Of a stretch of 64,000 nt of DNA, positions 12,838 through 35,043 are shown one piece after another. The stretch spans positions 16,172 through 80,171 of the forward strand of contig CAYZYV010000001.1 in the NCBI GenBank assembly GCA_964482735.1. The letters run 5' to 3'. Origin of the DNA: an uncultured Candidatus Saccharibacteria bacterium. Lineage in GTDB: Bacteria; Patescibacteriota; Minisyncoccia; Phycocordibacterales; UBA9973. How positions within the stretch are numbered: the first letter of the stretch is position 1; every line of letters begins with the position of its first letter. The notes under the pieces are model-generated. The model was not told the origin of the DNA, ran no database searches, and saw only the letters and a program-made list of their open reading frames with translations. The position numbers and the translations under genes were made by a program.

Positions 12838-13704
12838 CTATCGAACACATCGGACATAGCTCTCGTTAGTCTGGTTATGGTTAACCAAGTTACCATTGTA
12901 CATGAACTGTTCGTAAGCGAGCGAAGTAGGCGAAGATGGGACGGTGGTAGAAGACCAATAGATGTTCGCCACGAATCCCAAAGGTGCCCAAGGGTCTGTG
13001 TCACCATCTGTACTTGCCTTAGAATACCATGCGTGAGATAGGGTTCTTGATTCTTCGATAGAAGGAAGTCTTCCTCCGTTGGTAGCACAAGCAGTTTTTG
13101 CAGTAGACCAGTTCATTGTATTACTACCAGATACATCATCTCCGGGTAGAGAGACTCCGGCTGAAGTTACGCTTCTTGTATCCCATTTGACTACTCCATT
13201 TTCATCCACAGACCATGCTTTGAGTTCACCTGTGTCATAAATGAGAGCGGTGGCACCGAAGCGTTGGTAGTCGTCACCGATATATGGAGTAGAACCTATA
13301 CCTGTCCCATAAAAACTAAAGCATTTAACAACTATTCCTTGATCAGTGAGTGATTTAGCTATTGGGGCTAGGTTTCCAGTACAAGCGAGATCCGTGTATG
13401 AAGTATTTGATCCAGTAAAACTACCATTTTCGAGTTGGTTTAAAGACGCTTGATTATATAGCTGTTTTAATGTTGATTTGACAGTTGCAATCTTTCCTTT
13501 TTCTCTTGCACTATTTAGTGAAGCAACAACTACAGCAGATAATATTCCGATGATAGCGATAACTACAAGAAGTTCAATAAGGGTAAAACCTCCACACCCA
13601 CTTTTACAATGTGATTTCATCACGCACGTTTCGTGCTTTGTAAAAGTAGGTGTGGGGGTGAAGCCTTTTGTAATTTTATTAGATTTTATGAATTCCTTTT
13701 TCAC
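12838..13704 (-). CDS. Type IV pilin-like protein with a long leader and a C-terminal DUF1566/Lcl-like domain (paralog 1).
   Basis: It has a prepilin motif ([21 protein letters not shown]) and a conserved C-terminus ([27 protein letters not shown]...[10 protein letters not shown]...YWSS...VRCVR). The start was chosen at GTG 13704 by homology to paralog 3. The ORF-track ATG at 13761 is the alternative. Confidence 0.65.
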
Positions 13705-13710
13705 TTTTTT

Positions 13711-13716
13711 ATTATA
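13711..13716 (-). promoter_or_regulatory. TATAAT -10 box 6 nt upstream of the pilin-1 start codon, suggesting a leaderless mRNA.
   Basis: An identical TATAAT at identical spacing is present before all three pilin paralogs. Confidence 0.4.
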
Positions 13717-13745
13717 CCATAGTAGTTTCAAAATTAAACCGTTTT

Positions 13746-13842
13746 CCCCTAGGTCCGACATAGGGGAAAGGAAGATTACTTAATAAGCCGAGGTCTTTCC
13801 TCGTACGAGGTCGGACCTAGTACAAGGTCCGACCTCGGCTGT
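13746..13842. repeat. GC-rich palindromic elements upstream of pilin 1.
   Basis: cccctaggtccgacatagggg and gaggtcggacc-tagtacaa-ggtccgacctc (11-bp perfect arms) lie in the divergent pilin1/secG intergenic region. Confidence 0.6.
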
Positions 13843-13986
13843 TATCCACAGTTTTTGTAGAGTATCTTAGCCCGCTCAAACCTGGAGTTTAAGTTAGTAA
13901 AAAGATATTTTTTCACTCTTTAGTGTAATATAGTTAACCAAACACCTTATTGCTTATTCTCTCAAAATATAGTATACTCTTTTTAT

Positions 13987-14220
13987 ATGACGATTTTCAC
14001 TAATATGTTACCTTATTTACAGATAATTCTGTCCATAATTTTAATAGTTACTATTTTACTACAACAATCTTCAGCTGGAGTCGGAGGCGCTTTTGGTGGA
14101 GGCGAAGGTGGTGGTCTTTATAACACACGTCGTGGTTTTGAAAAGTTTCTCTTTATTTTTACTATAGTAATAGCGATACTCTTTGCTGTTTTTGCTTTTA
14201 TTGCTATTTTTGTAAAATAG
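13987..14220 (+). CDS. secG: Preprotein translocase subunit SecG.
   Basis: 77 aa with two TM helices and a glycine-rich loop (LLQQSSAGVGGAFGGGEGGGLYNTRRG). Confidence 0.7.
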   Translation: MTIFTNMLPYLQIILSIILIVTILLQQSSAGVGGAFGGGEGGGLYNTRRGFEKFLFIFTIVIAILFAVFAFIAIFVK

Positions 14221-14251
14221 GCTTCTTTTCCCGATACGGCAACAGTTTTCT

Positions 14252-16063
14252 ATGCGTAAAACCAAAAATATATTAAAGTTTTTAAAAGAATTTCGTTTTT
14301 ATAAAAAAAGAGAGCTAGCATTAGCTGCATCTTCCCTTTCCAGTAAACAATTTTTATTGTTTGTAGGACTACTTTTAGTAACCATTATTTCACTTGTTGG
14401 AATCATCGGTAAGATTAATAGTATGTTTTTAGTGGATGTTCCTTCAAATGGAGGAGAAATTACCGAAGGTATTGTCGGTTTTCCAACATTGGTTAACCCA
14501 GTTATTGCTTTTTCAGACGCAGACAAAGATTTAACTTCTTTGATTTATTCTGGACTAATGAGAAAAACTCCAGATGGTGATTATATCCCCGATTTAGCAA
14601 AAACAATGGATGTCTCAGGAAATGGAACAGTTTACACTTTTACCCTAAAAGATGGCATTGAATTTCATAATGGAAAAGATATTACCGTAGATGATATTAT
14701 TTTTACAATAGACAAGATCAAGGATCCTCTAACCAAGAGTCCTAAAAAGTCTAGCTGGGATGGAGTTATCGTTAACAAAATAGACGAAAAGACAATAGAG
14801 TTTAGACTTCCACAACCATATATTTCATTTATGGATAATACCACCTTAGGAATTTTACCTTCTCAATTGTGGAAAAACGTTAGCACAAAAGAATTTAATC
14901 TTTCTACCCTAAATTCTAAAGCTGTCGGTTCTGGTCCTTTTAAAGTTAGAAAGGTAATAAAAAACAGTGATGGCTTGTCTGAAAGATATGAGCTTGTCAG
15001 ATTTAATGGTTTTGCTCTTGGAAAACCATTAATCAAGAAATTAAACATTGTTTCTTTTGCCAGTGAAAAAGAATTAATTAAATCTTTTCAAGGTGGATCG
15101 ATAGACCAAGCTGGAGGAATTAGCCCAGAAAACGCTTCATCTATTTTAAAAGGTGGAAATAAGATAAACTCTGTGAATCTACCTAGAGTTTTCGGAATCT
15201 TCTTCAATAGCTCAAAAAATAAACTTTTTTCAGATGAAGAACTTGTGAAGCTTTTGAATAAGGCTATCGACAGACAAGAAATAGTCGACAAGGTCTTGAG
15301 TGGTTACGGAGAAATCATAGACTCCCCTATTCCAAAGAAGATTCTCGACAAAGAAATCAGCGAGAAATTCACAGCCACAACCATAGAAGAGATAAACGCA
15401 TCTTTGGATAAAGCTGGATGGAAACTTGGAGACGACGGGATTAGAGTAAAAGGTGGAAAGACAACCAAAACAGTGACCAAGAAAGTTAATGGAAAGACTG
15501 TTAAACAAAACGTTACGACAAGCTCTCCAGAAACTAGATTGTCTTTTTCTTTGACCACAGGAGACGCACCTGAATTAAAACAGGCTGTTTCAATAATAAA
15601 AGAGCAGTTGTTAAAAATAGGAGTAGAAGTAGATATTAAAAAGGTTTATGAGACTGGACAGGTAAACCAACTGATTCACGCTAGAGAATATGAAGCTTTA
15701 TTCTTTGGACAAATTATTTATCATGAATCTGATTTATATTCTTACTGGCACTCTTCCCAAAAGATGGGACCTGGTTTAAACATTGGACTTTATGACAATA
15801 AAAAAGCAGACTCTATACTAGAGTCTGCTCAGAAGATGATGTCTCGAGAAGACCGATTGCAAAAGTATGAGGACCTAAGTAATGAATTTAAAAATGATAT
15901 CCCAGCAATTATGGTTTATTCTCCTCTATACCTTTATGCAACTTCTAACAATTTAGTTAATTTAAATCTTTCAAATATTACAACCCCATCTGATAGATTC
16001 TTATCTTCGTATTTGTGGTCTGCAGATACAGATAAGGTCTACAAAATCTTTATAAAAAAATAA
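14252..16063 (+). CDS. ABC transporter substrate-binding protein, family 5 (peptide/nickel type). It has an N-terminal TM anchor.
   Basis: ~600 aa with a signal/TM and SBP_bac_5-like blocks (DIIFTIDKIKDP, GPFKV, NPEN). Confidence 0.65.
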   Translation: MRKTKNILKFLKEFRFYKKRELALAASSLSSKQFLLFVGLLLVTIISLVGIIGKINSMFLVDVPSNGGEITEGIVGFPTLVNPVIAFSDADKDLTSLIYSGLMRKTPDGDYIPDLAKTMDVSGNGTVYTFTLKDGIEFHNGKDITVDDIIFTIDKIKDPLTKSPKKSSWDGVIVNKIDEKTIEFRLPQPYISFMDNTTLGILPSQLWKNVSTKEFNLSTLNSKAVGSGPFKVRKVIKNSDGLSERYELVRFNGFALGKPLIKKLNIVSFASEKELIKSFQGGSIDQAGGISPENASSILKGGNKINSVNLPRVFGIFFNSSKNKLFSDEELVKLLNKAIDRQEIVDKVLSGYGEIIDSPIPKKILDKEISEKFTATTIEEINASLDKAGWKLGDDGIRVKGGKTTKTVTKKVNGKTVKQNVTTSSPETRLSFSLTTGDAPELKQAVSIIKEQLLKIGVEVDIKKVYETGQVNQLIHAREYEALFFGQIIYHESDLYSYWHSSQKMGPGLNIGLYDNKKADSILESAQKMMSREDRLQKYEDLSNEFKNDIPAIMVYSPLYLYATSNNLVNLNLSNITTPSDRFLSSYLWSADTDKVYKIFIKK

Positions 16064-16067
16064 AAAT

Positions 16068-18053
16068 ATGACAGAAATAAACAAAAAAAATCAAAACTCT
16101 AAAACAAGAGTTTCTAATAGATTTTCTTATGAGAAGCATGGGAGCATTCGTGTTTTACACAAACCACAATCCCCATCAGCTACAAAGAAAACGACTCAAA
16201 AAAATCCAATAGCAAATACTGCTAATAAAAGCTCAGATAATAGAGTAAAGAAAATTAGCCGAGGAAGTTATCAGTACGGTAGTAAAAAAATGCCTAAAAA
16301 GCCAAAAATGGAAGCTTCCGTGGCACAACCTAAAACTTTTAACACTAGAAAATCTAGCCCCATTCCTGCTCCTGAAAGAGATGTGATTAGAATAATACCC
16401 CTTGGAGGTGTTGAAGAAATCGGCAAGAACATGACCGCTATTGAAATCAATGACGACATCATAGTCATTGATGCCGGAATGCAATTTAAAACAGAAGATA
16501 CTCCAGGAATTGATTACATTATTCCAAACACTACTTACCTAGAAGAAAGAAAGGATAAGATAAGAGGAGTCTTTATTACCCACGCCCACCTAGACCACAT
16601 AGGAGGTGTGCCTTTGGTAATGAGCCGTATCGGTAATCCTCCAATCTATTCGAGAAATCTAACTGTTTTAATGATGAAAAAGAGACAAGAAGATTTTTCT
16701 CACCTACCCGCTTTAAAATTAAATGTCGTAGAGAAAGACAGTGTAATTTATGCTGGAGAAATGAAAATCAGATTCTTTGGTGTGACCCACACTGTGCCTG
16801 ATTCAATGGGTATAATCATAGAGACACCTTATGGATTGATTGTTAATCCTGGAGACTACAAATTGGATCAAGTAGATGGCAAAACCACCGAAAGCGAAGA
16901 AAAAGAATATGCATTTTTTGATAAAGAAAAAGTTCTTCTTTTAATGGCAGACTCGACCAACGTAGAAAATGATGGGTTTGCTCTTCCCGAAGTAAAAGTA
17001 CATGAGGGACTAGCTCATTTAATCAAACAAATTTCAGGGCGTATTATTATTGCCGCTTTTGCCTCTCACATAACAAGACTTGTTAAAATAATTGAGATAG
17101 CAGAATCATTAAATAAAAAAGTTGCGCTAGACGGTCGCTCTCTTAAAACCAACATGGAAGTTTGTGAGTTAGCTGGATTATATAAACCCAAAAAAGGAAC
17201 AATCATACCGATTGAAGATGCAGACAGCTACCCTCCTAACAAGGTGATCGTTCTAATGACCGGAGCTCAAGGAGAAGAATTCGCCGCGCTAGGACGTGCT
17301 GCAAATAAAACCCACAGAAAATTTACTATTAAAAAGGGAGATACAATAATTCTTTCAGCATCTATTGTTCCTGGTAACGAAATATCAGTTCAACACTTAA
17401 AAGATAACCTGACCAGACACGGAGTTCGTATAATTAGTTACAGAACAAGTGAGGAATATGTTCACGCTACCGGGCACGGCAACAAAGAAGATATTAAGTG
17501 GCTACACAGAAAGTTAAAACCTAAATTTTTTGTACCAATTCACGGACATCATTCAATGCTTGTTGCTCACAAAGAAATAGCTACTACTTTGGGAATGTCA
17601 GAAGAGAATATCATAGTCCCAGACAATGGCTCTATTATTGAAATAGCCGACAAGGGACAAAAAATTGTATTACGAAAAGAAAAAGCTCCTTCTGGACCAA
17701 TGCTAGTTGACGGTTTTTCAATCGGAGACGAGCAGGACGTGGTTATCAGAGACCGAGTTATGCTAGCAAAAGACGGAATGTTCGTTTTAATTGCTACGAT
17801 TGATCAAGCTTCTGGTAAACTTAGAAAATCCCCTGATATTATTTCTCGAGGATTCATATATCTTAAAGAAAACCAGGAATTATTACACCAAGTCCGTCTA
17901 ATCATCAAGAAAACGATTGAAGACGAAGCTCTTGGAAGAAATCCTATTAACTTCGATAGTGTAAAAACTGCTCTAGGCGATAACATCTCAAAGTTTTTAT
18001 TCCAAAAAACTGCAAAGAGGCCTATTGTTATCCCAGTATTATTAAGTATTTAA
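16068..18053 (+). CDS. rnj: Ribonuclease J (beta-CASP metallo-beta-lactamase) with a basic low-complexity N-terminal extension.
   Basis: HAHLDHIGG, GDYKLDQ and later H/D motifs. The first ~110 aa are K/S-rich. Confidence 0.85.
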   Translation: MTEINKKNQNSKTRVSNRFSYEKHGSIRVLHKPQSPSATKKTTQKNPIANTANKSSDNRVKKISRGSYQYGSKKMPKKPKMEASVAQPKTFNTRKSSPIPAPERDVIRIIPLGGVEEIGKNMTAIEINDDIIVIDAGMQFKTEDTPGIDYIIPNTTYLEERKDKIRGVFITHAHLDHIGGVPLVMSRIGNPPIYSRNLTVLMMKKRQEDFSHLPALKLNVVEKDSVIYAGEMKIRFFGVTHTVPDSMGIIIETPYGLIVNPGDYKLDQVDGKTTESEEKEYAFFDKEKVLLLMADSTNVENDGFALPEVKVHEGLAHLIKQISGRIIIAAFASHITRLVKIIEIAESLNKKVALDGRSLKTNMEVCELAGLYKPKKGTIIPIEDADSYPPNKVIVLMTGAQGEEFAALGRAANKTHRKFTIKKGDTIILSASIVPGNEISVQHLKDNLTRHGVRIISYRTSEEYVHATGHGNKEDIKWLHRKLKPKFFVPIHGHHSMLVAHKEIATTLGMSEENIIVPDNGSIIEIADKGQKIVLRKEKAPSGPMLVDGFSIGDEQDVVIRDRVMLAKDGMFVLIATIDQASGKLRKSPDIISRGFIYLKENQELLHQVRLIIKKTIEDEALGRNPINFDSVKTALGDNISKFLFQKTAKRPIVIPVLLSI

Positions 18054-18066
18054 TTAAATCTTAAAA

Positions 18067-19236
18067 ATGGATAGTCATAAACTAAAAATAAGAAGAATGT
18101 ATTTGCTCTCATTCCTGTTTACTTTTCACATTGCATTATCTTCATATATCAACTCTACGTTCTTAACGAACATCATATCTGAAAAATATGTTGGTATGCT
18201 TTATACCCTATCTTCCCTTTTAGCTTTAGCCCTCCTTTCAAGAAGTGTTAATATCTTAAAATATTTTGGAAACAAAAAATTAACTTTATCATTTTTGCTT
18301 TTAAATATGTTGGCCTTGGTTGGAATTATTTCTTCCTCAAGTCCGATTCTAACTAGTGTTTCCTTTATTATTTTCTCAGCAACCAACACCTTGGTTCTAT
18401 TTTGCATAGATATATTTATAGAGCATTTTAGTGACCCTTCAAAGACTGGTAAAACAAGAGGATTATACCTAACCATCATAAACATAGCCTGGATGTTGTC
18501 TCCTTTAATTTCTGCAATGTTAATTACTAAGACAGGCGGATACACATCTATCTATGTCTTAGCTTTTATAATGGTCGCCCTTATGACTATAGGTTTAGTC
18601 TTCTCTGTTAAAACATTTAAAGATAAGGTTTATATCAAAACACCTTTTATTCAAACTTTTAAATACCTTTTGACCAATAGACACATGCTGGCTATTGTTT
18701 CAATCAATTTCCTCTTACAATTCTTCTATGCTTGGATGGTTGTTTATACCCCTATTTATCTTTATGACCACTTGGGCTTTACTTGGGATCAAATAGGTAT
18801 TGCCTTCACGGCAATGTTAGCTCCATTTGTTATATTAGGATATCCATTAGGAATCTTAGTTGATAAATATCATGTTAAGAGAAGAAATATCTTGAAGTTA
18901 GGTTTTGCAATTGCAATAATTTCAACCGTTTCAATATTCTTCATAACTTCGATGAACGTTCTTTTGTGGGCGTTGGTTTTGTTTATGACAAGAGTCGGAG
19001 CTAGTATGATAGAAACAGCTGGAGAAATATATTTCTTCGATCATATCGATGATCAAGATGCTAATCTGTTGAGTATTTATCGAGACATGTATCCTATCGC
19101 TTATATCATAGCTCCTACGATAGCCACACTTATATTCCTTGTACTTCCATTTAAATATCTTTTCATTATTCTCGGACTAATCCTATCTGTTGGTTTTTAT
19201 ATTATTCCTAAACTTAAAAAAATAAAAAATGCTTAA
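18067..19236 (+). CDS. Polytopic membrane transporter (MFS-like).
   Basis: About 10-12 predicted TM segments. No specific family signature was seen. Confidence 0.45.
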   Translation: MDSHKLKIRRMYLLSFLFTFHIALSSYINSTFLTNIISEKYVGMLYTLSSLLALALLSRSVNILKYFGNKKLTLSFLLLNMLALVGIISSSSPILTSVSFIIFSATNTLVLFCIDIFIEHFSDPSKTGKTRGLYLTIINIAWMLSPLISAMLITKTGGYTSIYVLAFIMVALMTIGLVFSVKTFKDKVYIKTPFIQTFKYLLTNRHMLAIVSINFLLQFFYAWMVVYTPIYLYDHLGFTWDQIGIAFTAMLAPFVILGYPLGILVDKYHVKRRNILKLGFAIAIISTVSIFFITSMNVLLWALVLFMTRVGASMIETAGEIYFFDHIDDQDANLLSIYRDMYPIAYIIAPTIATLIFLVLPFKYLFIILGLILSVGFYIIPKLKKIKNA

Positions 19237-19942
19237 AACTGAATATCCTATTAGGATTAATAAATATCTAGCTTTAAAAAACTACTCTACTAGAACTGGA
19301 GGAGACGATCTAATCAAAAAGGGATTAGTTTTTATAAACGGCAAAAAAGCCAAATTGGGAGACAAAGTTTTTGAAGAAGACACCGTAACCGTAAATACAA
19401 CCAAGAATCAAAAACAATTGGTCTACTATGCATACAATAAAAAAACAAATGTTTCTACCAACAAAGAACCCGGAGCCAAAGACATACTATCCGTGACCAA
19501 ATTCCCCGAAAGAGTTTTCCCTGTAGGTAGATTAGACAAAGATTCTCATGGATTAATTATTTTAACCAACGATGGAAGGATTACAGACCGATTATTATCA
19601 CCTCGTTATGTTCACGAAAAAGAATACATTGTAAAAGTTGAACCAGCTTTTAGTTCAAAATTTATTGAACTAATGTCAAAGGGGGTTAGGTTCGATGGAT
19701 ACACTAGTAAAAGATGTGAGATCTGGGCAAAAGGTAAATCAACCGATACTTTTCATATTATTTTAACCGAGGGTAAGAAGAGACAAATCAGAAGAATGTG
19801 TGAAGCTCTACATCATGAAGTGATAGATCTAAAAAGAATTCGAGTAATGAACATAGAATTAGGAAAAATAAAAGAAGGAGAATACAAAAAGATAGAAGGA
19901 CTAGAATTAGACATTTTCTTAAAATCATTGAACCTAAAATAA
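19229..19942 (+). CDS. Pseudouridine synthase, RsuA/RluB family (S4 domain plus catalytic domain).
   Basis: S4-like N-terminus (RINKYLALKNYSTRTGGDDLIKKGLVFINGK) and the catalytic Asp motif VGRLDKDSHGLIILTNDG. Confidence 0.8.
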   Translation: MLKTEYPIRINKYLALKNYSTRTGGDDLIKKGLVFINGKKAKLGDKVFEEDTVTVNTTKNQKQLVYYAYNKKTNVSTNKEPGAKDILSVTKFPERVFPVGRLDKDSHGLIILTNDGRITDRLLSPRYVHEKEYIVKVEPAFSSKFIELMSKGVRFDGYTSKRCEIWAKGKSTDTFHIILTEGKKRQIRRMCEALHHEVIDLKRIRVMNIELGKIKEGEYKKIEGLELDIFLKSLNLK

Positions 19943-20043
19943 AAACACCCCGACCAAAGTCGAAGTGTTTTTATTTTAAGTTAACAATATAGGGCTTGCC
20001 CGATTGCTATTTGGCAATGTAGGGCTTGCGCCCCCCCCGATCG

Positions 20044-20244
20044 CTATTTAGCGATATAGGGCAATAGACCCATAAATCTTGCTCTCTTGATAGCTTCTGC
20101 AAGTTTTCTTTGATTCTTTGCAGTTACATCAGTTCTTCTTCTTGAAAGAATACGAGCATTAGGAGTTAAAAATCTTTTTAGAAGTTCAACGTCCTTATAG
20201 TCTATATGCTTTATATTATTTGATGAGAAATAATCTTGTTTCAT
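20044..20244 (-). CDS. rpsR: Ribosomal protein S18.
   Basis: [12 protein letters not shown]...[28 protein letters not shown]. The start was taken at the internal ATG (20244). The ORF track extends to 20280. Confidence 0.8.
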
Positions 20245-20308
20245 TTTAGCGACAAGGGAATAGTGAAAAGCGAATAGCAAATCAGTAAACCCTAGTTAAA
20301 TTTAAAAT

Positions 20309-20653
20309 TTATTTTAATTTTTTAATAATAACCGATAACAATTTCTCCACCTCTGTAACTAACGTTAATGATTTTTCAACATTAATTTTTGGATATAGAG
20401 AATTACATAACATTAATTGTGTTTCTAACTCTGCAGATGAACCATACGCAATTATGAGAAATCTTATAAAATCTTTTGTGCCTCTTTTGTGCCCTTCTGC
20501 AATGTTACTAGGGATAGATATTGCACTTCTTTTTAGTTGGGAACTCAAACTATACATTTCTTCTGGCGGTAATTTTCTAGCTACCCAATAAACCTCTTTG
20601 GTTAAATCCATAGCTTTTTGCCAGACTATTAAATCTTTAAAAGAATTAATCAT
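20309..20653 (-). CDS. Four-helix-bundle protein of the TIGR02436 family (the family often encoded within 23S rRNA intervening sequences).
   Basis: DLIVWQKAMDL...QLKRSAISIPSNIAEG...DFIRFLIIAYGSSAELETQL. The real start is probably ATG 20653. The ORF-track N-terminus (GIGKIQKFNSLGVRVR twice) is a translation of the 48-bp tandem repeat. Confidence 0.7.
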   Translation of the reverse strand: MINSFKDLIVWQKAMDLTKEVYWVARKLPPEEMYSLSSQLKRSAISIPSNIAEGHKRGTKDFIRFLIIAYGSSAELETQLMLCNSLYPKINVEKSLTLVTEVEKLLSVIIKKLK

Positions 20654-20672
20654 GATATATTTTATTCTCCAC

Positions 20673-20768
20673 CCCCTTACTCTAACCCCCAGGGAATTGA
20701 ATTTTTGTATTTTCCCTATTCCCCTTACTCTAACCCCCAGGGAATTGAATTTTTGTATTTTCCCTATT
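20673..20768. repeat. Perfect 48-bp tandem duplication (two copies plus partial flanks) in the ssb/4HB intergenic region.
   Basis: ccccttactctaacccccagggaattgaatttttgtattttccctatt occurs at 20673-20720 and 20721-20768. Confidence 0.85.
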
Positions 20769-20791
20769 CCCTTTACACTATTCACTACCCC

Positions 20792-21244: not shown

Positions 21245-21366
21245 ATAATTAGTTTCTAGTTTAAAGTTTCTAGTTTAAAGTGAAATCTTCACCAAAATAG
21301 ATACTGAAACTATTTATTATAATGATAATTTTCTAGAACACTGAATGTTTCTAGAGACTAACCTAA

Positions 21367-21888: not shown

Positions 21889-22012
21889 TGTAAAAATATT
21901 ATTTTAAATATTATAAAATCTCGCTCCGGACCTAAGTATCCCGATGTCAGTATCGGGATAAACGAGACTCCATCATATTAACAAAAAATAAGGCTTATGT
22001 CAAAGCCGATTT

Positions 22013-22825
22013 TTATCGAACGCAGCGAACATGATATCCATTGGCATGACTACCATCACCAAAGTTTCCGGTACCCATATACTGGAAGTAAGTATGCGTG
22101 GTGGGTGAAGACGGAACGAGATTAGAAGACCAGTAGTGAAGTGCTGCAAAACCAAACGGTGCCCAAGGGTCAGTATCTTCAGTGGAAGCTTTTGAATACC
22201 AGGCATGAGACAGTGTTCGAAGCTGTTCAATAGATGGAAGACGCCCACCATTTTTGGCACATGCATCTGCTGCAATGTATACACCATTGTTATCTTTCCA
22301 TGCCATAGTGATATCTGTTGAACTATTTGTTCCATCTATGTTTACTCCATGAGTATCCCATTTAACTACCCCATTTTCATCGACAGACCAAGCTTTAAGT
22401 TCACCTGAATCATAGATGAGAGCAGTGGCACCGAAACGTAAGTAGATATCACTATACGGAGTTCCATAGTAACTAAAACACTTAACAGCAACACCTTGGT
22501 CGATTAATGGTTGAGCAATCTTGGCTAGATTACCGGTAGTAATATCACCCGGAGATCCGTCTTCCTTTAAACCAGTACAATCTAAATTATAATATGAAAC
22601 ATTAGAATTAACAAAACTACCTTTTGTAACCTGATTTATCGCAGCTTGATTATATAGTTGTTTTAAAGTTGATTTGATAGTAGCTATCTTCCCCTTCTCT
22701 CTTGCAGAGTTTAATGAAGCAATAACAACAGCAGAAAGTATTCCAATGATAGCAATAACGACAAGTAATTCGATTAGTGTGAATCCTCTGGTTTTTTTGT
22801 CTGATTTTAAGAGTTTCTTTTTCAT
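22013..22825 (-). CDS. Type IV pilin-like protein with a C-terminal DUF1566/Lcl-like domain (paralog 2).
   Basis: [34 protein letters not shown] prepilin N-terminus and the conserved C-terminal block ending VRCVR. Confidence 0.7.
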   Translation of the reverse strand: MKKKLLKSDKKTRGFTLIELLVVIAIIGILSAVVIASLNSAREKGKIATIKSTLKQLYNQAAINQVTKGSFVNSNVSYYNLDCTGLKEDGSPGDITTGNLAKIAQPLIDQGVAVKCFSYYGTPYSDIYLRFGATALIYDSGELKAWSVDENGVVKWDTHGVNIDGTNSSTDITMAWKDNNGVYIAADACAKNGGRLPSIEQLRTLSHAWYSKASTEDTDPWAPFGFAALHYWSSNLVPSSPTTHTYFQYMGTGNFGDGSHANGYHVRCVR

Positions 22826-22831
22826 TTTTTT

Positions 22832-22837
22832 ATTATA
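22832..22837 (-). promoter_or_regulatory. TATAAT box 6 nt upstream of the pilin-2 ATG.
   Basis: Same spacing as in paralogs 1 and 3. Confidence 0.4.
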
Positions 22838-22852
22838 ACATAATTCTTACCT

Positions 22853-22908
22853 GTGGATAACTGTTCGAGGTCTTGCCTGTGCAGGCAAGACCTCGAACAG
22901 TTATCCAC
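22853..22908. repeat. 56-bp perfect palindrome (25-bp arms) between tatD and pilin 2.
   Basis: gtggataactgttcgaggtcttgcc-tgtgca-ggcaagacctcgaacagttatccac. Confidence 0.8.
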
Positions 22909-22913
22909 AATTT

Positions 22914-23777: not shown

Positions 23778-23779
23778 TT

Positions 23780-25249: not shown

Positions 25250-25250
25250 A

Positions 25251-26339: not shown

Positions 26340-26373
26340 TTTAATGATAATTTAAATGTAGTATTTATTGGTG

Positions 26374-27714: not shown

Positions 27715-27734
27715 CTTTGTAATTTTATAATCTT

Positions 27735-29618
27735 CTAATTAGATACCCTACCGTTCCCTTCTCCAGCTGACGCCCCACTGATTGATGAGATGTATAAGTT
27801 ATTCATCGTGCTTCCAACCTGTGCACCAGAGTAGGAATCTGTTCCTGACAATGAGATGTTTTGTATCAAAAGTGGAGAGAGTCCTACTTGTGATATTGAT
27901 GGCTTAAAGTTCACAATAAAAGAAACTTCTCGGTTTGAATCCACCCCTGTTCCTGGTGGAACTGATCCTATCTTCCATGTAATTTCTCTTTTTTCTTTAT
28001 TGTAAGAAATATTTTCTTTTGTACCTGCAACAAATCCTACCCAATCAGTATAAATAGGTAAACTTGCTGTTACAAGAGCCTGACTAACACTGTTAGTAGA
28101 ATTGGATAATGTCCATGTCACCATATAATTAGTACTACCTTCTGCCCTAGGCGGCAAATCTCCAGTCAAATAAGATAATGATGAAGCCACTTGAAAATCA
28201 GTTTTTAATTTTATTTTTTTCTCTGTGAAATTATCTATATTAGAGAAGCTACTTCCGTATAATGGTTGGTTACCCTTTATACTTACGCTTATCACAGCCT
28301 GCGGATTCTTAATTCCAGAAAGTCCGGTTAAGCTCATAGGTGTGAAATCGAAAGAAACTTTCCCTGTTCCACCTGGCTCTATGGACGCAAGCTCTTTTAG
28401 AGTACTCTTATTCCAAATAATCTGCCCATTGAGAGAATCATAATAACCAGAAGTTTCTTTTATATTATTCTTATCAAGAATATTTCCAGTAATTTTTGCC
28501 ACTATTTCTGCATCGTTAATACTAGAAGAAAGATTATTTTTCCAAGTAATATCTACACTGACTTCTTGTCCACCCTTAACTGCATATTCTTCTTGGTCTT
28601 GATTGTTTACCAAAACTTTAATATCAAGAAACGGATTTTCTATAACCATCTTTTGTAAGATAGAACTGTAAACAACCCCCATTTTAGAAGTATCATTATT
28701 ATCTAACGTTCCTGCATAAGCATGGAAAACTTGTTCATCTCCAGTCTGCCCCATCAATTTACCTTTAAGCTCTATTGTTATTGGAGTGGTTTGAGTAATT
28801 GAAGATAAATCCCAAATATAATTATCGTTCATTGGCAACGGCTCAGCTGTTTCAAAAATAAAATTGCTAGGGTGTTTTAGTTGTAACACTAGATGATCAC
28901 TTGGCTGAGTTGTATTTAGGGTTGTAGTGATCTTGATAGAAACTGTTTGATTGGCAATTATACTATTAGGAGCTTCTACTTTTAGAGAAACAGGAGCTAG
29001 ACTAATAGTTACAGGGTAATACTTTTCTTTAGCAAAGGTAGCGTTAGATCCTTCTGGGCGATATTCTAAACTGGCCTTAATGTTCTTTATTGATTTTTCT
29101 GATCCATAAAGTTTTACTCTGATATTTCGAATAACAGTCTCTCCTGATTTTATGGTTCCAATCTCATCTTTATCTAAACGAATTATTTCAGAATCGTCAT
29201 TTGCCCCCTTAGGGTACTCGATCGTTAAAGACGCAGACTCTAAGCTTGCACTATTACGATTAGTTATCTCTATCTCTAAGGGTAAATCCTCACCCCCCTT
29301 AGTAAACGAGCTACCAATTATTTCCAAATCTATTTTATTTCCTGAAACAGTCGAGTCATCTAGGAAAAATTTATAAGCAGAATAACCAACTGCTCCGATG
29401 AAGAATATAATGGACAGTATAAAAAATTTTTTAAAAAAAGAAGTTTTTATTTTTTTATTTTTATTAGGCATTTCTTCTGTTTTTGGTTTATCCCATTCAT
29501 CTTTTACATCATATCTTTGTTCTCTTAAAGCCCCTCTTCTATAACTAGTTGACTCGTCGTAATTGGGATCATATAGTTTTCTTTTTAAATCTTCAATTTT
29601 TCCTTTGTTTTCTGACAT
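27735..29618 (-). CDS. Large single-pass membrane protein with a beta-rich extracytoplasmic repeat region. A surface protein is likely.
   Basis: ~60-aa charged cytoplasmic N-terminus, one TM (FFILSIIFFIGAVGYSAY), then ~550 aa rich in T/S/N/V with repeated strand-like segments. Confidence 0.4.
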   Translation of the reverse strand: MSENKGKIEDLKRKLYDPNYDESTSYRRGALREQRYDVKDEWDKPKTEEMPNKNKKIKTSFFKKFFILSIIFFIGAVGYSAYKFFLDDSTVSGNKIDLEIIGSSFTKGGEDLPLEIEITNRNSASLESASLTIEYPKGANDDSEIIRLDKDEIGTIKSGETVIRNIRVKLYGSEKSIKNIKASLEYRPEGSNATFAKEKYYPVTISLAPVSLKVEAPNSIIANQTVSIKITTTLNTTQPSDHLVLQLKHPSNFIFETAEPLPMNDNYIWDLSSITQTTPITIELKGKLMGQTGDEQVFHAYAGTLDNNDTSKMGVVYSSILQKMVIENPFLDIKVLVNNQDQEEYAVKGGQEVSVDITWKNNLSSSINDAEIVAKITGNILDKNNIKETSGYYDSLNGQIIWNKSTLKELASIEPGGTGKVSFDFTPMSLTGLSGIKNPQAVISVSIKGNQPLYGSSFSNIDNFTEKKIKLKTDFQVASSLSYLTGDLPPRAEGSTNYMVTWTLSNSTNSVSQALVTASLPIYTDWVGFVAGTKENISYNKEKREITWKIGSVPPGTGVDSNREVSFIVNFKPSISQVGLSPLLIQNISLSGTDSYSGAQVGSTMNNLYISSISGASAGEGNGRVSN

Positions 29619-29645
29619 AAAAACATTATATCATAAAAATACTTT

Positions 29646-30230
29646 TTATAATTGGCTCTCCAAAAGAGCTTTATTTATATGGGCTATAATTGACTGCCTT
29701 TCTCTTAGAAGATCATTCGTTTTATCTTTATTAAAGGGAGAACCTAGATACTTTGATAAAAGCGACGAATCCCCAATATAACCAAGCTCATTCATGATTC
29801 TTAGGACAAGGTGAAGTTCTAGTGCTTCTCTCGTGTCATTTTCAACCTCATCATCTAATATATAAATTGACTGAATAAGTTCATCAAAAATTTTTTGATT
29901 TACCGATTCCGCTCCGCAAAATCTGTCTATGAGAGATGAAATGCGAGCAATCAAAAGCAAAGAGTCTTTATTGGCTCTAGCTAGTGGAAAAGTATTTATA
30001 CTTTTTGCAGAGGTCACTCTCCAGATTTCTTTTCCTTTTACAAAATCAACATTAGCATATGAAAAATCTTGGAGTATATATTTTAGCTTCGATTTATTTA
30101 GTCTTATTCCCTGCACCATCGCGCGCACAAGCCCCAATTCCCTAGTAAAAATTGTGACCATTTTATTAGCTTCGCCCACGTTACGCGAAGACAGAATAAA
30201 TCCTTGTGTGTGATAAATATGATGATGCAT
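29646..30230 (-). CDS. recO: DNA repair protein RecO (short form).
   Basis: N-terminal OB-fold pattern (GFILSSRNVGEANKMVTIFTRELGLVRAMVQG) and a helical C-terminal half. The call is moderate. Confidence 0.5.
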   Translation of the reverse strand: MHHHIYHTQGFILSSRNVGEANKMVTIFTRELGLVRAMVQGIRLNKSKLKYILQDFSYANVDFVKGKEIWRVTSAKSINTFPLARANKDSLLLIARISSLIDRFCGAESVNQKIFDELIQSIYILDDEVENDTREALELHLVLRIMNELGYIGDSSLLSKYLGSPFNKDKTNDLLRERQSIIAHINKALLESQL

Positions 30231-30267
30231 ATTGAATACGTTACTTATAAATAATTATTGATATGTA

Positions 30268-30306
30268 GTTATATTTGGCACTTCTTGCCCCGTAGTAAGC
30301 TATTGT
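30268..30306. repeat. Third copy of the gtagtaagc...ttactctgggg hairpin repeat (see 7296-7395).
   Basis: cttgccccgtagtaagctattgttttactctggggtg. Confidence 0.45.
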
Positions 30307-30345
30307 TTTACTCTGGGGTGATAAATATGGTGATACATTACACTT

Positions 30346-33300
30346 TTATTTTACCACCTTAATTACAAAAGTTAAATCTGCAATTTTTACTTCTATCCCA
30401 TCATTGTCTTCATACTCTATCGTCTTAGCAGATACTAATTTTTGAATATTTTCCTTAAAGAGGTTTACTAGATTTTTACCACTCTCATCGGTTTTGACTA
30501 CAAGAGTAATCACATCATTAGGATTCAACTCGTTTTTCTTTCTTATGTCTTGAATAGCCCTAACAAGTTCTCGATAATAACCCTCAAGTTTCAAATCTTC
30601 AGTGATATTTGTATCGAGAATAACCTCAAGTTCTTGTCCTTCTTCAAATTTTACATTTTTGATATTTAATTCATCTTTTAGAATAGAAACATATTCTTCT
30701 TTTAGGTTGTATTTTTTAAGTGTTATTTCACGAAGAGGTTGTCTAACAGGAATTCCTGCTTTTTGTCGGTTTTGTAAACCTAGTGTAACTATTTCTCTTA
30801 ATTCTTTCATTTCCTCTATGACTTTCTCTTCATAGCTAATAGCCTCTGGCCAGCTAGAGAAATGGACACTCTCCGGATCACCTTCTAATTTTAACTTCTG
30901 CCATATATCCTCGGCTGAAAATGGAGCGAACGGAGCAAATAGTCTCGCCATTGTTTTAAATACAAAATAGATGGTTTGTTTAGCTTCTGTGTCTCCATCT
31001 TTAATTCTGTCTCTTGAACGGCGTAAATACCATGTAGATAAATCATCTATAAAATTTCTAGCTGCCCTTACAGGCTCAAGTAATTTGTAATCTTCTGTGT
31101 TATCTGTCATAACTTTGATTAATTCTCCGAGCTTAGCCATAATCCAGATGTCCAGCACATTTTTACTTTTTGGCATATCGTTCGATTCAATTTTTGTATC
31201 TCTGTATAGTTCATAAAAAGCCAAAACATTATAGAACAAATTGAAAAACTTATTATTTAATTCTGCAACGGTTTTCTCATCAAAATTTTTCGGTTCACCA
31301 GGTTGATTGATTGAATACATCCAGAGACGAAGAGCATCCACTCCATATTTATCTATCATAAGCCACGGGTCTACTCCATTACCAAGCGACTTAGACATTT
31401 TCTTGCCATTAGCATCAAGCACAAGTCCGAGACAAATTACGTTCTTGAACGCTTTACCTTTGTTCATAATTGTTCCAACAGCATGAAGAGTATAGAACCA
31501 ACCTCTTGTTTGGTCTATTCCCTCACTAATAAAATCAGCAGGGTAAGAAATATCCTTTGTGCTAAATGGGTAATGACTCTGAGCAAAAGGCATGGACCCT
31601 GAATCAAGCCAAACATCCATAACTTCTTTTGTTCTTTCTAATTTACCACCACAATCACAAGTAAGATGAATATCATCAATATATGGTCTGTGTAGGTCTA
31701 ATTCATAATTTTCATCATGAGGAATTAGTTTGAAATCAAGTTCTCTAATTTCCGAATTGGTAAGACAAGAAAAGTTCTTTAACATTGAGAGAGATTCTTT
31801 TGCTCCGTAACCATTTATTCCTGCAATCATAAGCCAGGCTGGCCCTCCGTGGGTTACGATTAATATATTTTTATCTTGATATTTGTTTTCTAAATCGTAC
31901 AAGAAATCCATTGATCTTTTTCTCAACTCATTCCATGTCTCACTACCTTCTTCTGTTTTATAGAAATTTTCTTCTGTATTAGGATAATCATTGTGATAAT
32001 CTTGCCATGTTTTTCCTTCGTATTTAGAAACTTTGTATTCTGTTAAATTCTCATCTATCAAAATCTTTTCAGTATCGTATCCTAAAATTTTTGCAACTTC
32101 ATTTGCTGTTTCTTTTGCTCTTGTTACAGGAGAAGATATTATTAAGTCTATTTTTTCATCTTTGATTTTTTCTGCGTTATTTCTAGATTCAGTTATACCT
32201 TTCTCTGTTAGGTGACTTACTCGATATTCATCTTTTGTATTTATCTTTCCATCAATATTGTTTTCTGCCTCTCCATGACGCATAACAAAATACTTATTGC
32301 CAGAAGTTTTTGCTTTAGATTTTATATCTTCTAAACTTCCAAGTACTTCTATCTTGCCACAAGTATCACACTTCCAAACAGGAAGTGGTGTCCCCCAATA
32401 TCTTTCTCGTGATATTGCCCAATCTTTAATATCTTTTAGCCATTCACCAAATCTCCCCTCTTTTATGTAAGATGGTTCCCAGTTAATGTCTTCATTCTCT
32501 TTCATCATTTTGTCACGGAGAGCCGACATTTTTATATACCAAGAATCTCGAGCGTAGTAGACAAGGGCTGTTTTACATCTCCAGCAGTGAGGATATGTGT
32601 GTTCGTATTTTTCTTTTTTAAACAAGAGGTTTCTTCCTGATAAATCTTTCATTATATCTATTGCAACATCTTCATTTCTGACGAACCTTCCAGTCAAGAA
32701 ATCTGTTCCTTCTAAGAATTTTCCATCAAGCCCAACAAGGTGGCATTTAGGAAGCCCAACCTTATTACCCAAGTCGAAGTCATCTTGTCCATACATTGGA
32801 GCTATGTGTACAACACCTGTTCCATCTTCTGTTGTCACAAAATCTGCTCCATAAATTTTATAAGCATTTTCTAACTTTTGTTCTTCTTCTTTGTTAACCA
32901 AAGATTTTGTATATGGATATAGAGGCTCATAAGAAAGGCCAAGTAAGTCTTTACCTTTTAATTCCTTAACAATTTTATATTCACCATCCAAGATTGATAG
33001 ACGAGACTTCGCAAGAATCAAAAGTTCTCCGTTCTGTTCTACCAAAACATAATCAATATCTTCTCCAACAGCCAATGCAACATTCGAAGGAAGTGTCCAC
33101 GGCGTTGTTGTCCAAACTAAAACACAGATTTCTTCGCTCGCATGCTTCCCTGAAGAAATTTTAGAACACGAATCTCCTGTTAATTTAAATTTCACATACA
33201 CTGTAATATCTTTAACATCTTGGTATCCTTGAGCTAATTCGTGTGAAGAAAGCCCCGTTCCACATCTTGGACACCATGGCACAATTTTGTAATCTTTAAA

Positions 33301-33813
33301 AAGTAAATCTTGCTTGGAAGCTTCTTTAATAACATTCCAAACTGATTCAATGTAATCATTGTGATAAGTAACGTAAGGATTTTCTTGATCTACCCAAAAA
33401 CCTATTCTGTCTGTAAATTTATGCCACAAATCTGTGTAGTTCCATACGCTCTTCTTGCATTCTTTATTAAATTTATCTATTCCGTATTCTTCAATTTCCT
33501 TTTTCGATTCTAGGTTTAATTTTTTCTCAACTTCAATTTCTACAGGAAGACCATGAGTGTCCCATCCGCCTTTTCTGGTAACATGGTAACCTTGCATTGT
33601 CTTATAACGTAAAATAGCATCCTTAAAAGCCCTCGCTTCCAAGTGGTGAATTCCAGGCTTGCCATTAGCAGTTGGGGGACCTTCATAGAAAACATATTCC
33701 CCTTTTGGAGAATCTTTTTCTAAACTCTTTTCGAAAATTTTGTTCTCTTGCCAAAATTCTAAAACTTTTTCTTCCCGAAGTGTATTATTTGATTTTTCTT
33801 TTTCTTCATTCAT
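30346..33813 (-). CDS. ileS: Isoleucyl-tRNA synthetase carrying an inserted histidine-phosphatase (PGAM-like) domain within the zinc knuckle.
   Basis: IleRS signatures (GWDTHGLPVE, CP1 editing region, KMSKSLGN). Between CDTCGK (aa ~482) and HLTCDCGG (aa ~717) lies a ~165-aa module. It begins FVMRHGEAENN (RHGE at nt 32269-32280) and ends ILIVTHGGPAWLM, the two catalytic hallmarks of the histidine phosphatase superfamily. Confidence 0.9.
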   Translation of the reverse strand: MNEEKEKSNNTLREEKVLEFWQENKIFEKSLEKDSPKGEYVFYEGPPTANGKPGIHHLEARAFKDAILRYKTMQGYHVTRKGGWDTHGLPVEIEVEKKLNLESKKEIEEYGIDKFNKECKKSVWNYTDLWHKFTDRIGFWVDQENPYVTYHNDYIESVWNVIKEASKQDLLFKDYKIVPWCPRCGTGLSSHELAQGYQDVKDITVYVKFKLTGDSCSKISSGKHASEEICVLVWTTTPWTLPSNVALAVGEDIDYVLVEQNGELLILAKSRLSILDGEYKIVKELKGKDLLGLSYEPLYPYTKSLVNKEEEQKLENAYKIYGADFVTTEDGTGVVHIAPMYGQDDFDLGNKVGLPKCHLVGLDGKFLEGTDFLTGRFVRNEDVAIDIMKDLSGRNLLFKKEKYEHTYPHCWRCKTALVYYARDSWYIKMSALRDKMMKENEDINWEPSYIKEGRFGEWLKDIKDWAISRERYWGTPLPVWKCDTCGKIEVLGSLEDIKSKAKTSGNKYFVMRHGEAENNIDGKINTKDEYRVSHLTEKGITESRNNAEKIKDEKIDLIISSPVTRAKETANEVAKILGYDTEKILIDENLTEYKVSKYEGKTWQDYHNDYPNTEENFYKTEEGSETWNELRKRSMDFLYDLENKYQDKNILIVTHGGPAWLMIAGINGYGAKESLSMLKNFSCLTNSEIRELDFKLIPHDENYELDLHRPYIDDIHLTCDCGGKLERTKEVMDVWLDSGSMPFAQSHYPFSTKDISYPADFISEGIDQTRGWFYTLHAVGTIMNKGKAFKNVICLGLVLDANGKKMSKSLGNGVDPWLMIDKYGVDALRLWMYSINQPGEPKNFDEKTVAELNNKFFNLFYNVLAFYELYRDTKIESNDMPKSKNVLDIWIMAKLGELIKVMTDNTEDYKLLEPVRAARNFIDDLSTWYLRRSRDRIKDGDTEAKQTIYFVFKTMARLFAPFAPFSAEDIWQKLKLEGDPESVHFSSWPEAISYEEKVIEEMKELREIVTLGLQNRQKAGIPVRQPLREITLKKYNLKEEYVSILKDELNIKNVKFEEGQELEVILDTNITEDLKLEGYYRELVRAIQDIRKKNELNPNDVITLVVKTDESGKNLVNLFKENIQKLVSAKTIEYEDNDGIEVKIADLTFVIKVVK

Positions 33814-34208
33814 ATGTTTTCTATTTAATTAATAAGTTTAATAATCATTTTAGAAAATAAAAATAAGTCTTTGGGAAACGCCTTGCACAGAGCGACGGCT
33901 CGAGCAGAGAAATTTTTCAGCAGAAAAATATTCGTGCATTTCGAGAAGAGCTTATTTTTGTTTTCTCCTAACAAAAAAACTCGTCCTTGTATAACAATCA
34001 CAAAATTGTTACATAAGGACGAGTTTCAAAAAATTCTCGTGGTACCACCTTAATTCCCCCAAAAGGGCTTATTTTACAGCTTTTACGGGCTTACCCGCTA
34101 AGTTCTAATTTCCTTTTATGGATTTCTTCTTAGTGCTCAGAGGTGATATCCTCTTCAACGCTTCTTTATATATTATAACATATTTACCTTAAAATTAAAA
34201 GTTTGTTT

Positions 34209-35003
34209 TTATCGAACACATCGAACCTTATAAAGGTCTGAGGCCTTATAAGCATAATCAATTCTACCACTAACCGTATTAATTAAATAAGCCAAACTAG
34301 AATTTTTAATAGATGTATTATTAGTCCAGTAAAAGTAACCGTTAGAAAAACCCGTAGGATAATAAACGGTACTTCCTGAACCTTGATACCATGCATGAAA
34401 TAAAGTCCGTATTTGTTCAAAGGATGGAAGTCGTCCGCCGTTCGTAGCACAAGCAGTATTTGCCGTATTCCAACTCATTGTAGAGTCAGGGGTAACTGTA
34501 TCACCTAAAGAGGTAACACCTTGTGTATCCCATTTAACTATTCCGTTTTCATCAACAGACCAAGCCTTGAGTTCACCCGTGTCATATATTAAAGCCGTAG
34601 CTCCGAAACGTTGATAATCATCGCCAGGGTAGATTCCACCGCTTCCCGTTCCATAAAGACTAAAACATTTAACAATTACACCTTGATCAATTAGAGGTTT
34701 AGCAATTTTAGCTAAGTTGCCGGTAGTAGTATCACCTTGTGAGTCGTCTGAATTTAACCCCGTACATGCTAAATCGGTATCTGAAGAATTCGAATAAATA
34801 AAACTACCTTTGTTTAATTGGTTTAATGCAGCCTGATTGTATAGTTGTTTTAAAGTTGATTTAATTGTGGCTATCTTTCCCTTTTCTCTTGCAGAGTTCA
34901 GAGAAGCAATAACTACAGCAGAAAGAATACCAATGATAGCAATTACAACCAATAACTCTATCAACGTGAATGCTTTATTAGATTTTAGAGATTCCTTTTT
35001 CAC
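34209..35003 (-). CDS. Type IV pilin-like protein with a C-terminal DUF1566/Lcl-like domain (paralog 3). It starts at GTG.
   Basis: [31 protein letters not shown] and a conserved C-terminus ([27 protein letters not shown]...NGGRLPSFEQ...VRCVR). Confidence 0.7.
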   Translation of the reverse strand: MKKESLKSNKAFTLIELLVVIAIIGILSAVVIASLNSAREKGKIATIKSTLKQLYNQAALNQLNKGSFIYSNSSDTDLACTGLNSDDSQGDTTTGNLAKIAKPLIDQGVIVKCFSLYGTGSGGIYPGDDYQRFGATALIYDTGELKAWSVDENGIVKWDTQGVTSLGDTVTPDSTMSWNTANTACATNGGRLPSFEQIRTLFHAWYQGSGSTVYYPTGFSNGYFYWTNNTSIKNSSLAYLINTVSGRIDYAYKASDLYKVRCVR

Positions 35004-35009: not shown

Positions 35010-35015
35010 ATTATA
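35010..35015 (-). promoter_or_regulatory. TATAAT box 6 nt upstream of the pilin-3 GTG.
   Basis: cacttttttattatacca is conserved with paralog 1 over ~90 bp. Confidence 0.4.
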
Positions 35016-35043
35016 CCACAGTAGCTTTAAAACTAAACAGTTT

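Follow-up and report, generated by a model that had tools for sequence, protein, structure and literature searches.

Three pilin–lectin genes of a Patescibacteria genome, probable off-template members of a family diversified by retroelements

A 64-kb stretch of contig CAYZYV010000001.1, referred to here in its full length as the window, carries three minus-strand genes that, as judged from profile matches and a predicted structure, encode type IV prepilin-like proteins fused to a C-type-lectin-fold (Lcl_C/DUF1566) domain. Their relation to diversity-generating retroelements (DGRs) is the subject of this report. Contigs from other assemblies or samples (some of them from Logan) are designated below by L-numbers and database proteins by P-numbers. 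The three genes are as follows.

12838-13704, minus strand: paralog 1, prepilin with pilin head and Lcl_C/C-type-lectin-fold domain; 288 aa from GTG 13704 (open reading frame (ORF), translation, Pfam)
22013-22825, minus strand: paralog 2, prepilin with Lcl_C-like domain; 270 aa, ATG start (ORF, Pfam, AlphaFold2, Foldseek)
34209-35003, minus strand: paralog 3, prepilin with Lcl_C-like domain; 264 aa, GTG start; C-terminal 60 aa divergent

An initial annotation, made from the letters of the sequence alone, had placed three genes here, and intact ORFs were confirmed at all three positions; tblastn across the 64 kb retrieved no further pilin–lectin copies or fragments. The proteins share 64-71% pairwise identity. 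Paralog 3 and database protein P0044 are the same; the BLASTP identity of 99.6% comes from the GTG start, which the window translation renders as Val. For paralog 1, aligning the gene with paralogs 2 and 3 and L023 led to the choice of GTG 13704 as the start; NCBI places it farther upstream, at ATG 13761 (307 aa), where the ORF also permits a start.

The proposed prepilin N-terminus was borne out by PF07963 (N_methyl), which all three proteins match at 31.9-38.4 bits (31.9 for paralog 1) vs a cut-off of 21.2. The DUF1566 assignment held in part: PF07603 (Lcl_C) is matched by all three (E about 1e-8 to 3.5e-7), with only paralog 1 (35.7 bits) exceeding the curated cut-off of 34.9 and paralogs 2 and 3 reaching 31.0 and 33.6 bits. 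Weaker Pfam matches are to Lectin_C, Intimin_C, and InvE_AD. Among 72 homologs, four Cys and the G/F/E5 motif are invariant, as are F, T, L, I, E, L, and L. The AlphaFold2 prediction for paralog 2, from an alignment of 72 homologs (predicted local distance difference test, pLDDT, 91.8), has a 52-residue N-terminal helix (17-68), followed by a small head and, C-terminally, an alpha/beta domain. The top Foldseek match of the latter among PDB structures is the Legionella Lcl C-terminal domain (8q4e; probability 1.00, TM score 0.49 on target). Endo180, formylglycine-generating enzymes (FGE), intimin, langerin, C-type lectin-like domains (CTLDs), and the Bordetella phage DGR protein Mtd were matched as well, all with weak E-values (best 3e-3).

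Each gene would form an independent monocistronic unit, its product consisting of a class III signal peptide (G-1/F+1/E+5), a long alpha-1 helix with a small pilin head, and the C-terminal lectin-fold domain as the presumed ligand-binding tip. At ~250 aa, the mature proteins are bigger than a typical major pilin, none of the pilus machinery genes pilB, pilC, pilD, pilM, and pilT lies within the window, and paralogs are many per genome (at least 5 recorded for a 169-kb NCBI contig and at least 7 in the related genome CAYPQU01). These features would suit surface lectins that employ the prepilin signal for export and membrane anchoring alone, in a pseudopilin-like or "bindosome"-like manner, rather than filament subunits. 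The N-terminal 60 residues, however, match the solved filament-forming pilins PilA and geopilin (E 1e-10 to 1e-12), E5 and the alpha-1 helix are invariant across homologs, and a PilB-type ATPase (T2SSE) adjoins the DGR reverse transcriptase in a related contig. We consider anchored lectins rather unlikely.

The Family and Its Diversity-Generating Retroelement

The family has more than 5,000 matches among database proteins. The best of them share the N_methyl and Lcl_C architecture, and several are named Candidatus Moranbacteria, in agreement with the candidate phyla radiation (CPR)-like host that had been proposed from the sequence. The related genome CAYPQU01 contains at least seven paralogs at unrelated loci. 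One of its contigs, L001, displays a cassette composed of a pilin gene, a bAvd gene (PF22296, 43.8 bits), a template repeat (TR) that is an Asn-codon-rich 3' pilin fragment, and an RVT_1 reverse transcriptase (RT) with the motifs IGNLTSQ and YVDD. Comparison of this TR with its own variable region (VR, 138 nt) reveals mismatches at 13/38 A and 0/100 non-A positions, and the TR fits five other genes almost as cleanly; the counts are 18/38 A and 0/100 non-A for L005, and 14/38 A and 1/100 non-A for L009. The targets L003, L004, and L007 reside on contigs other than that of the cassette and are thus in-trans targets. Going by these sequence features, the L001 system is a canonical DGR with several targets in trans.

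A second cassette, on L144, consists of a pilin gene, a 90-aa ORF, a TR, an RT, and rpoB, with TR and VR differing at 13/34 A and 0/107 non-A positions. The L144 TR also fits L023, in which 9/34 A sites and 0/107 non-A sites are changed. L023 encodes P0243, a 98% allele of paralog P0005, and P0005 and P0040 are recorded as a fourth and fifth paralog on a 169,177-bp NCBI contig, as are paralogs 1-3. The TRs occur in two scaffold subtypes, PTTLAY..SQTNG and PLSLAY..SQGNG.

Comparisons between alleles and paralogs agree with the template counts. P0005 and P0243, which comes from another sample, differ at 5/268 residues, all at template-Asn positions; 11/11 residues that differ between P0007 and P0008 fall inside the VR, and the same between-sample pattern was found for P0006-8. 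Across 52 homologs, entropy amounts to 2.96 bits at the 12 template-Asn positions vs 0.84 elsewhere (p = 2e-7). In on-template members, the RT would copy the TR, with the 12 AAC/AAT codons misread at adenines, and the cDNA would replace the last ~141 nt of the gene (GFVAxxYWSS...YVRCVR), randomising 12 residues on the lectin-fold surface. The sequences of the relatives and of the sister paralog P0005 bear the marks of such VR rewriting. What the initial annotation had missed is that the variable part of this family is a DGR VR at the very 3' end, within the last 47 codons.

In short-read assemblies (L013, L014, L018-L021), contigs end systematically within the conserved N-terminal part of the pilin or at the DGR TR, and the RT contigs L018-L021 (Logan, other samples) begin ~70 nt before the RT. 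Pilin genes and cassettes are therefore under-represented or truncated in public contigs. A metagenome scan with a 17-mer from the VR flank, a pattern that proved too short, returned 120 unrelated loci and no homologs.

Template Status and Recombination of the Three Copies

The segments of the window genes that correspond to the VR are given here.

12841-12981, minus strand: VR equivalent of paralog 1, last 47 codons (...YVRCVR); off-template; 80-81% identical over 143-161 nt to the L001 and L144 TRs
22016-22156, minus strand: VR equivalent of paralog 2, last 47 codons; off-template; 73-74% identical over 62-80 nt to the L001 and L144 TRs
34212-34355, minus strand: C-terminal region of paralog 3 at the VR position; without nucleotide homology to known TRs

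Differences between TR and VR are confined to adenines in the relatives and in the L023 allele of P0005; in paralogs 1-3 they are not. Relative to the L144 TR, mismatches occur at 10/34 A and 18/107 non-A positions in paralog 1, at 16/34 and 37/107 in paralog 2, and at 19/34 and 72/107 in paralog 3. When both known TR types are considered, non-A mismatches number 13-18 in paralog 1 and 29-37 in paralog 2. The VRCVR codons of the homing region differ at ~4/18 nt between the window copies and the on-template allele L023. When the L001 and L144 cassettes served as blastn and tblastn queries against the window, no TR, RT, or Avd homolog was found; the only matches were the VRs of paralogs 1 and 2. 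In other samples (L017, L016, L012; one extra assembled contig per gene, not reads), no VR differences were observed for paralogs 1-3, the VR of paralog 2 being unchanged in allele L016/P0001. On account of the non-A differences, the homing-region changes, the absence of TR and RT nearby, and the invariance of the VRs in these few samples, the copies are judged to have left the template.

We hold with moderate confidence that paralogs 1-3 are probably former or independent family members, not currently diversified by a known template. Jointly with their membership of a large Patescibacteria (Moranbacteria-like) multigene family that is a natural target family of CPR-type DGRs, we assign this reading a probability of roughly 0.75. 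The window copies would keep the scaffold together with a footprint of NNY codons while gathering non-adenine differences, and would most likely supply fixed adhesin specificities beside actively diversified copies. The footprint itself is plain in two of the genes: codons at template-Asn positions are NNY at 11/12 sites in paralog 1 (p = 0.009) and at 12/12 in paralog 2 (p = 0.0014).

Several points weigh against this reading. The near-cognate reference, the L144 TR, stems from another assembly and not from the genome of the window, and the enrichment of mismatches at its A sites is weak (p = 0.09 for paralog 1 and 0.13 for paralog 2). The alignment of paralog 3 to the VR is offset by one residue, which leaves its NNY count not interpretable. 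To these are added the small scale of the between-sample comparison, the apparent location of all five paralogs on one contig, which derives from matching database records and not from sequence, and the assembly of the proteins into filaments, which is an assumption given a window devoid of pilus machinery.

The NNY footprint in paralogs 1 and 2 would also be expected if paralogs 1-3 were still active DGR targets, served by a second or more divergent TR elsewhere in the genome. Multi-target DGRs acting in trans are the rule in the related genome, where L003, L004, and L007 lie off the cassette contig. Two TR scaffold subtypes exist, paralog 1 being like the PTTLAY..SQTNG type, and the 3' flank of paralog 1 past the stop codon resembles the TR flank (TAGTACTTTT-GCCTATAATT vs TAGTAGTTTTTTGGCCTAGAATT). 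An active template is nevertheless hard to reconcile with the non-A mismatches of paralogs 1 and 2 to both TR types, with the altered VRCVR homing codons, and with VRs that are unchanged in the contigs of other samples, and we deem it unlikely.

One window gene was examined as a candidate Avd and rejected. The ORF at 20309-20785 (minus strand), a "23S rRNA intervening sequence protein" by PF05635, has no match to bAvd PF22296 and no similarity to the accessory proteins of L001 and L144, and neither a TR nor an RT adjoins it. This four-helix-bundle ORF (E 3e-31) directly follows ssb, and we take it to be a member of the broad Avd-like group.

The identity pattern of the three genes departs from that described initially, in which the last ~300 nt were 80-85% identical and the middle third was divergent. 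In codon windows, the last ~180 nt are the most divergent segment (58-70% identity for paralog 1 vs 2 and 39-45% for paralog 3 vs either), and only the final VRCVR codons are common to all. At the protein level, too, the last ~60 codons diverge most, chiefly in paralog 3, which has 13-31% amino-acid identity to paralogs 1 and 2. Conserved blocks are the N-terminal helix region (91-97% protein and 68-84% nt identity) and the GATALIYD...KWDT block, 340-400 nt before the stop codon (72-81% nt identity). The proportion of synonymous differences (pS) between copies is 0.6-0.9, conserved blocks included, and 0.6-0.8 in the alpha-1 helix region. Because synonymous sites are saturated even in the conserved blocks, purifying selection, not recent conversion, keeps those blocks. 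Part of the 3' similarity that had been noticed is explained by retrohoming, since a shared template makes 3' ends alike at non-A positions.

The three genes had further been read as a pilE/pilS-like system, in which antigenic variation would arise by the exchange of cassettes through gene conversion. All three are full length and possess their own promoters, tblastn retrieved no silent, promoterless, or truncated copies from the window, and pS is high throughout. A GENECONV-like permutation test of the three pairs gave p = 0.014, 0.056, and 0.61, values that are uncorrected and anti-conservative because constraint varies along the gene. A local rise in identity is confined to paralogs 1 and 3, which are ~85-90% identical over the promoter and the first 10 codons. 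These comparisons suggest mosaicism that is at most marginal among paralogs 1-3.

At the level of the family, the description as mosaic is right, and the mosaic blocks speak for cassette exchange. In CAYPQU01, paralogs agree at 25-74 polymorphic sites in a row (p <= 0.0005 in 12/21 pairs), and windows of >200 nt with 100% identity occur within pairs that are 45-75% identical elsewhere and lie at loci with unrelated flanks. P0005 and P0008 are identical over the C-terminal 143 aa, with 41 differing positions upstream; paralog 1 matches P0049 at every one of its first 93 aa (translated promoter region included) and at ~60% of positions beyond. As seen in relatives, N-terminal and central modules of the family are also shuffled by homologous recombination. 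Between-sample differences in the relatives are nonetheless confined to template-Asn positions, which is the signature of a DGR, and variation of the three window genes by cassette exchange appears very unlikely. Contig L016, in which the paralog 2 body and the S6 gene are joined to a P0005-like upstream and 5' coding region (1-330), was considered as a recombinant allele and rejected. Logan contigs are built from short k-mers, and L016 is for this reason treated as a probable assembly chimera.

Leader Insertion, Promoters, and Neighbourhood

The leader-coding region of paralog 1 is interrupted by an insertion with these parts.

13591-13656, minus strand: 66-nt Y-shaped palindromic element (inverted repeat) in the leader-coding region of paralog 1
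13657-13665 and 13582-13590, minus strand: direct repeats flanking the element, GGCTTCACC and GGTTTTACC, respectively, both encoding G-F-T

An in-frame leader insertion of ~28 aa had been reported; the insertion is present and measures 25 aa (75 nt). The leader, put at ~47 aa, is 39 aa long from GTG 13704 and 58 aa from ATG 13761. In place of the supposed partial duplication, a palindromic insertion element is found between 9-nt direct repeats, GGYTTYACC (G-F-T), and the extra 75 nt are made up of the 66-nt element and one copy of this repeat. Its arms are 19-22 nt long (the 22-nt arms are 91% complementary) and enclose two small inner hairpins, with a predicted RNA fold of -40.3 kcal/mol (z -7.3). 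It is the only copy in the window. Insertions lie at precisely this position, between the doubled G-F-T codons of the prepilin cleavage site, in ~20/115 homologs (~17%); they are in frame, hairpin-encoded, 22-50 aa long, and of at least three unrelated sequence classes. A class-B element in L146 (peptide the same as in P0040) has the same Y-shaped design (-39.8 kcal/mol, z -8.6), and a neighbouring pilin of L146 without the lectin domain contains two leader elements in tandem. The locations are 13582-13665 in the window, 4039-4131 and 4944-5117 in L146, and 51-114 in L017, with element sizes of 66-75 nt. Among three element copies, six base pairs are preserved by compensatory changes on both sides.

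The canonical cleavage site, between G and FTLIELL, is intact past the element, and prepilin peptidase would presumably remove the inserted peptide along with the leader. The hairpins have no match in Rfam, and a literature search found no published description of such elements. We suggest, tentatively and with some doubt, that the Y-shaped elements constitute an undescribed family of site-specific mobile elements or cis-acting RNA/DNA structures, for which GGNTTYACC would be the target and the cleaved leader a safe harbour. If so, they could modulate the expression, processing, or recombination of pilin genes. In L023 (1629-1790), an inverted-repeat element of ~130 nt separates the stop codon from GCCTAGAATTT, a conserved motif usually found after VR and TR alike; at its ends, CCCACACACCTAT...ATAGGTATAGGGG, this element is similar to the leader element of paralog 1.

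The following features flank the coding regions.

13711-13719, minus strand: extended -10 box of paralog 1, TGGTATAAT, ending 6 nt before GTG 13704
22832-22840, minus strand: extended -10 box of paralog 2, TGTTATAAT, ending 6 nt before ATG 22825
35010-35018, minus strand: extended -10 box of paralog 3, TGGTATAAT, ending 6 nt before GTG 35003
13743-13840 (13743-13769 and 13786-13840), minus strand: nested palindromes with core AGGTC-N-GACCT upstream of paralog 1; candidate operator or insulator
22861-22900, minus strand: 40-nt hairpin CTGTTCGAGGTC...GACCTCGAACAG upstream of paralog 2, related to the AGGTC-N-GACCT palindromes
35044-35062, minus strand: palindrome CCCTAGGTC-C-GACCTAGGG, ~30 nt upstream of the paralog 3 -10 box
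21992-22007, minus strand: terminator-like hairpin and T-run directly past the paralog 2 stop codon

The initial annotation was correct in placing a TATAAT box 6 nt before each start in the absence of a Shine–Dalgarno (SD) sequence: all three genes read TGnTATAAT, AAAAAA, and GTG or ATG, without SD. Initiation at this extended -10 promoter, 6 nt ahead of the start codon, would give a leaderless mRNA. This arrangement, regarded earlier as a feature of these genes, is present in them and is not pilin-specific, being seen across the window. A convincing SD was found in 0/51 window genes; among 65 TGnTAnnAT motifs, the spacing to the start of an ORF (>=100 aa) is exactly 6 nt eight times and 7 nt twice, with every other spacing from 0 to 40 occurring at most once. 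Seven paralogs of another genome have TGnTAYAAT-N6/7-ATG. Leaderless transcription is, from these patterns, a well-supported prediction for the organism as a whole. The promoter analysis gave no alternative in-frame start upstream of the cleavage site; the paralog 1 ORF is nonetheless extendable to ATG 13761. The pilin promoters are not listed by a consensus promoter scan, which missed them because the -35 hexamer is absent.

The AGGTC-N-GACCT palindrome is located ~30 nt upstream of the -10 box in paralogs 1 and 3, with extra copies farther upstream of paralog 1. Within the 64 kb, it occurs only upstream of pilin genes (0.02 chance matches expected), and it is also present upstream of the homologs L002 and L023 from other assemblies. 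Its placement makes it a candidate operator.

Beyond the pilin genes, TGnTAnnAT precedes the start by 6-7 nt at ~10 genes (for example, at 2863, 9632, 29618, 37643, 40124, and 52362). The sigma factor at 46312-46926 probably starts at an ATG 7 nt past TGATATGAT. A 627-aa ORF without a Pfam match (27735-29618, minus strand) has a perfect TGATATAAT-N6-ATG start and is conserved in Logan contig L013.

The neighbours of the pilin genes are housekeeping genes, encoding aminoacyl-tRNA synthetases, TatD, S6, SSB, RecO, RNase J, and enzymes of thymidylate metabolism. One of the synthetases, that for isoleucine (30346-33813, minus strand), displays a His_Phos_1 histidine-phosphatase domain inserted at residues 509-676, and the same architecture is found in Logan contig L013. 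A defence/prophage island occupies 49.7-64 kb. It opens with a Thoeris-like cluster (49780-51680, minus strand) composed of ThsB TIR, ThsA Macro, and ThsB TIR genes, followed by a LexA/S24-like repressor (51686-52333). A prophage-like remnant or integrative element (52362-57722, plus strand) encodes an N6/N4 DNA methylase with a ParB-like N-terminus, a small terminase-like helix-turn-helix protein, a large terminase, and a large serine recombinase. The region 57719-63972 (minus strand) has two adjacent genes, for an Eco57I/MmeI-type fused restriction-modification methylase (1040 aa) and for a 1044-aa SNF2 helicase that includes a PLD nuclease domain; they and the Thoeris cluster form a defence island in a CPR genome. 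The position of the L144 cassette next to rpoB had suggested rpoB beside the end of the window, an idea that was dropped, the two large ORFs at the end being this methylase and this helicase.

Significance and Comparison with Known Systems

DGR targets with DUF1566/CLec2 domains form an established class, and CPR bacteria are known to be rich in DGRs (PMC5758913, PMC8144416). PMC6642488 mentions, with reference to Paul et al. 2017, "putative pilin structures" in CPR DGR targets of the DUF1566 type, and PMC11661182 lists G-type pilin domains that hold a VR as rare. The kind of system described here is thus already known; the literature found does not cover the off-template status of these three copies, how far mosaicism extends, or the leader elements.

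Patescibacteria live attached to other cells, with pili as the main contact organ, and an expanded pilin–lectin family linked to retroelement hypervariation provides candidate host-recognition adhesins. One genome apparently contains both on-template and retired copies, which would offer a natural experiment on the recruitment and loss of DGR targets. Leaderless, SD-free starts affect gene calling, as NCBI and Prodigal gave different, and probably wrong, starts for paralog 1; leader hairpin elements matter likewise for gene calling in such genomes.

The closest counterparts are the DUF1566/CLec2 DGR proteins (category "d" of Wu et al. 2018, including Legionella LdtA, and the CPR set of Paul et al. 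2017). Shared with them are a VR on the C-terminal strands of the lectin fold that ends a few codons before the stop and, as known from the cassettes of relatives, the target–avd–TR–RT order, adenine-only mutagenesis, several in-trans targets, and a CPR host. Pilin-like N-termini on DUF1566 targets have been mentioned before (PMC6642488, PMC11661182). The window genes differ in having no nearby cassette and in being off-template, their family differs in its copy number (at least 5-8 per genome) and mosaic recombination, and the anchor is a prepilin signal here whereas LdtA has a lipoprotein signal.

With type IVa major pilins (PilA/PilE, geopilin), the proteins share a short basic leader, G-1/F+1/E+5, an alpha-1 helix of ~50 residues, and a disulfide-bonded head; they differ by an extra C-terminal lectin-fold domain of ~110 residues and by leader insertions in ~17% of the family. 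The Neisseria pilE/pilS system likewise comprises multicopy pilins with conserved and variable segments, and inter-copy recombination is detectable in relatives of the window genes. In contrast to Neisseria, silent promoterless 5'-truncated cassettes are lacking, all copies are expressible, and hypervariation is templated by a retroelement. The best structural match, the Lcl C-terminal domain of Legionella pneumophila (8q4e), belongs to the same PF07603 family at ~20% sequence identity, but Lcl, for which no role as a DGR target is reported, has a collagen-like stalk where the window proteins have a pilin.

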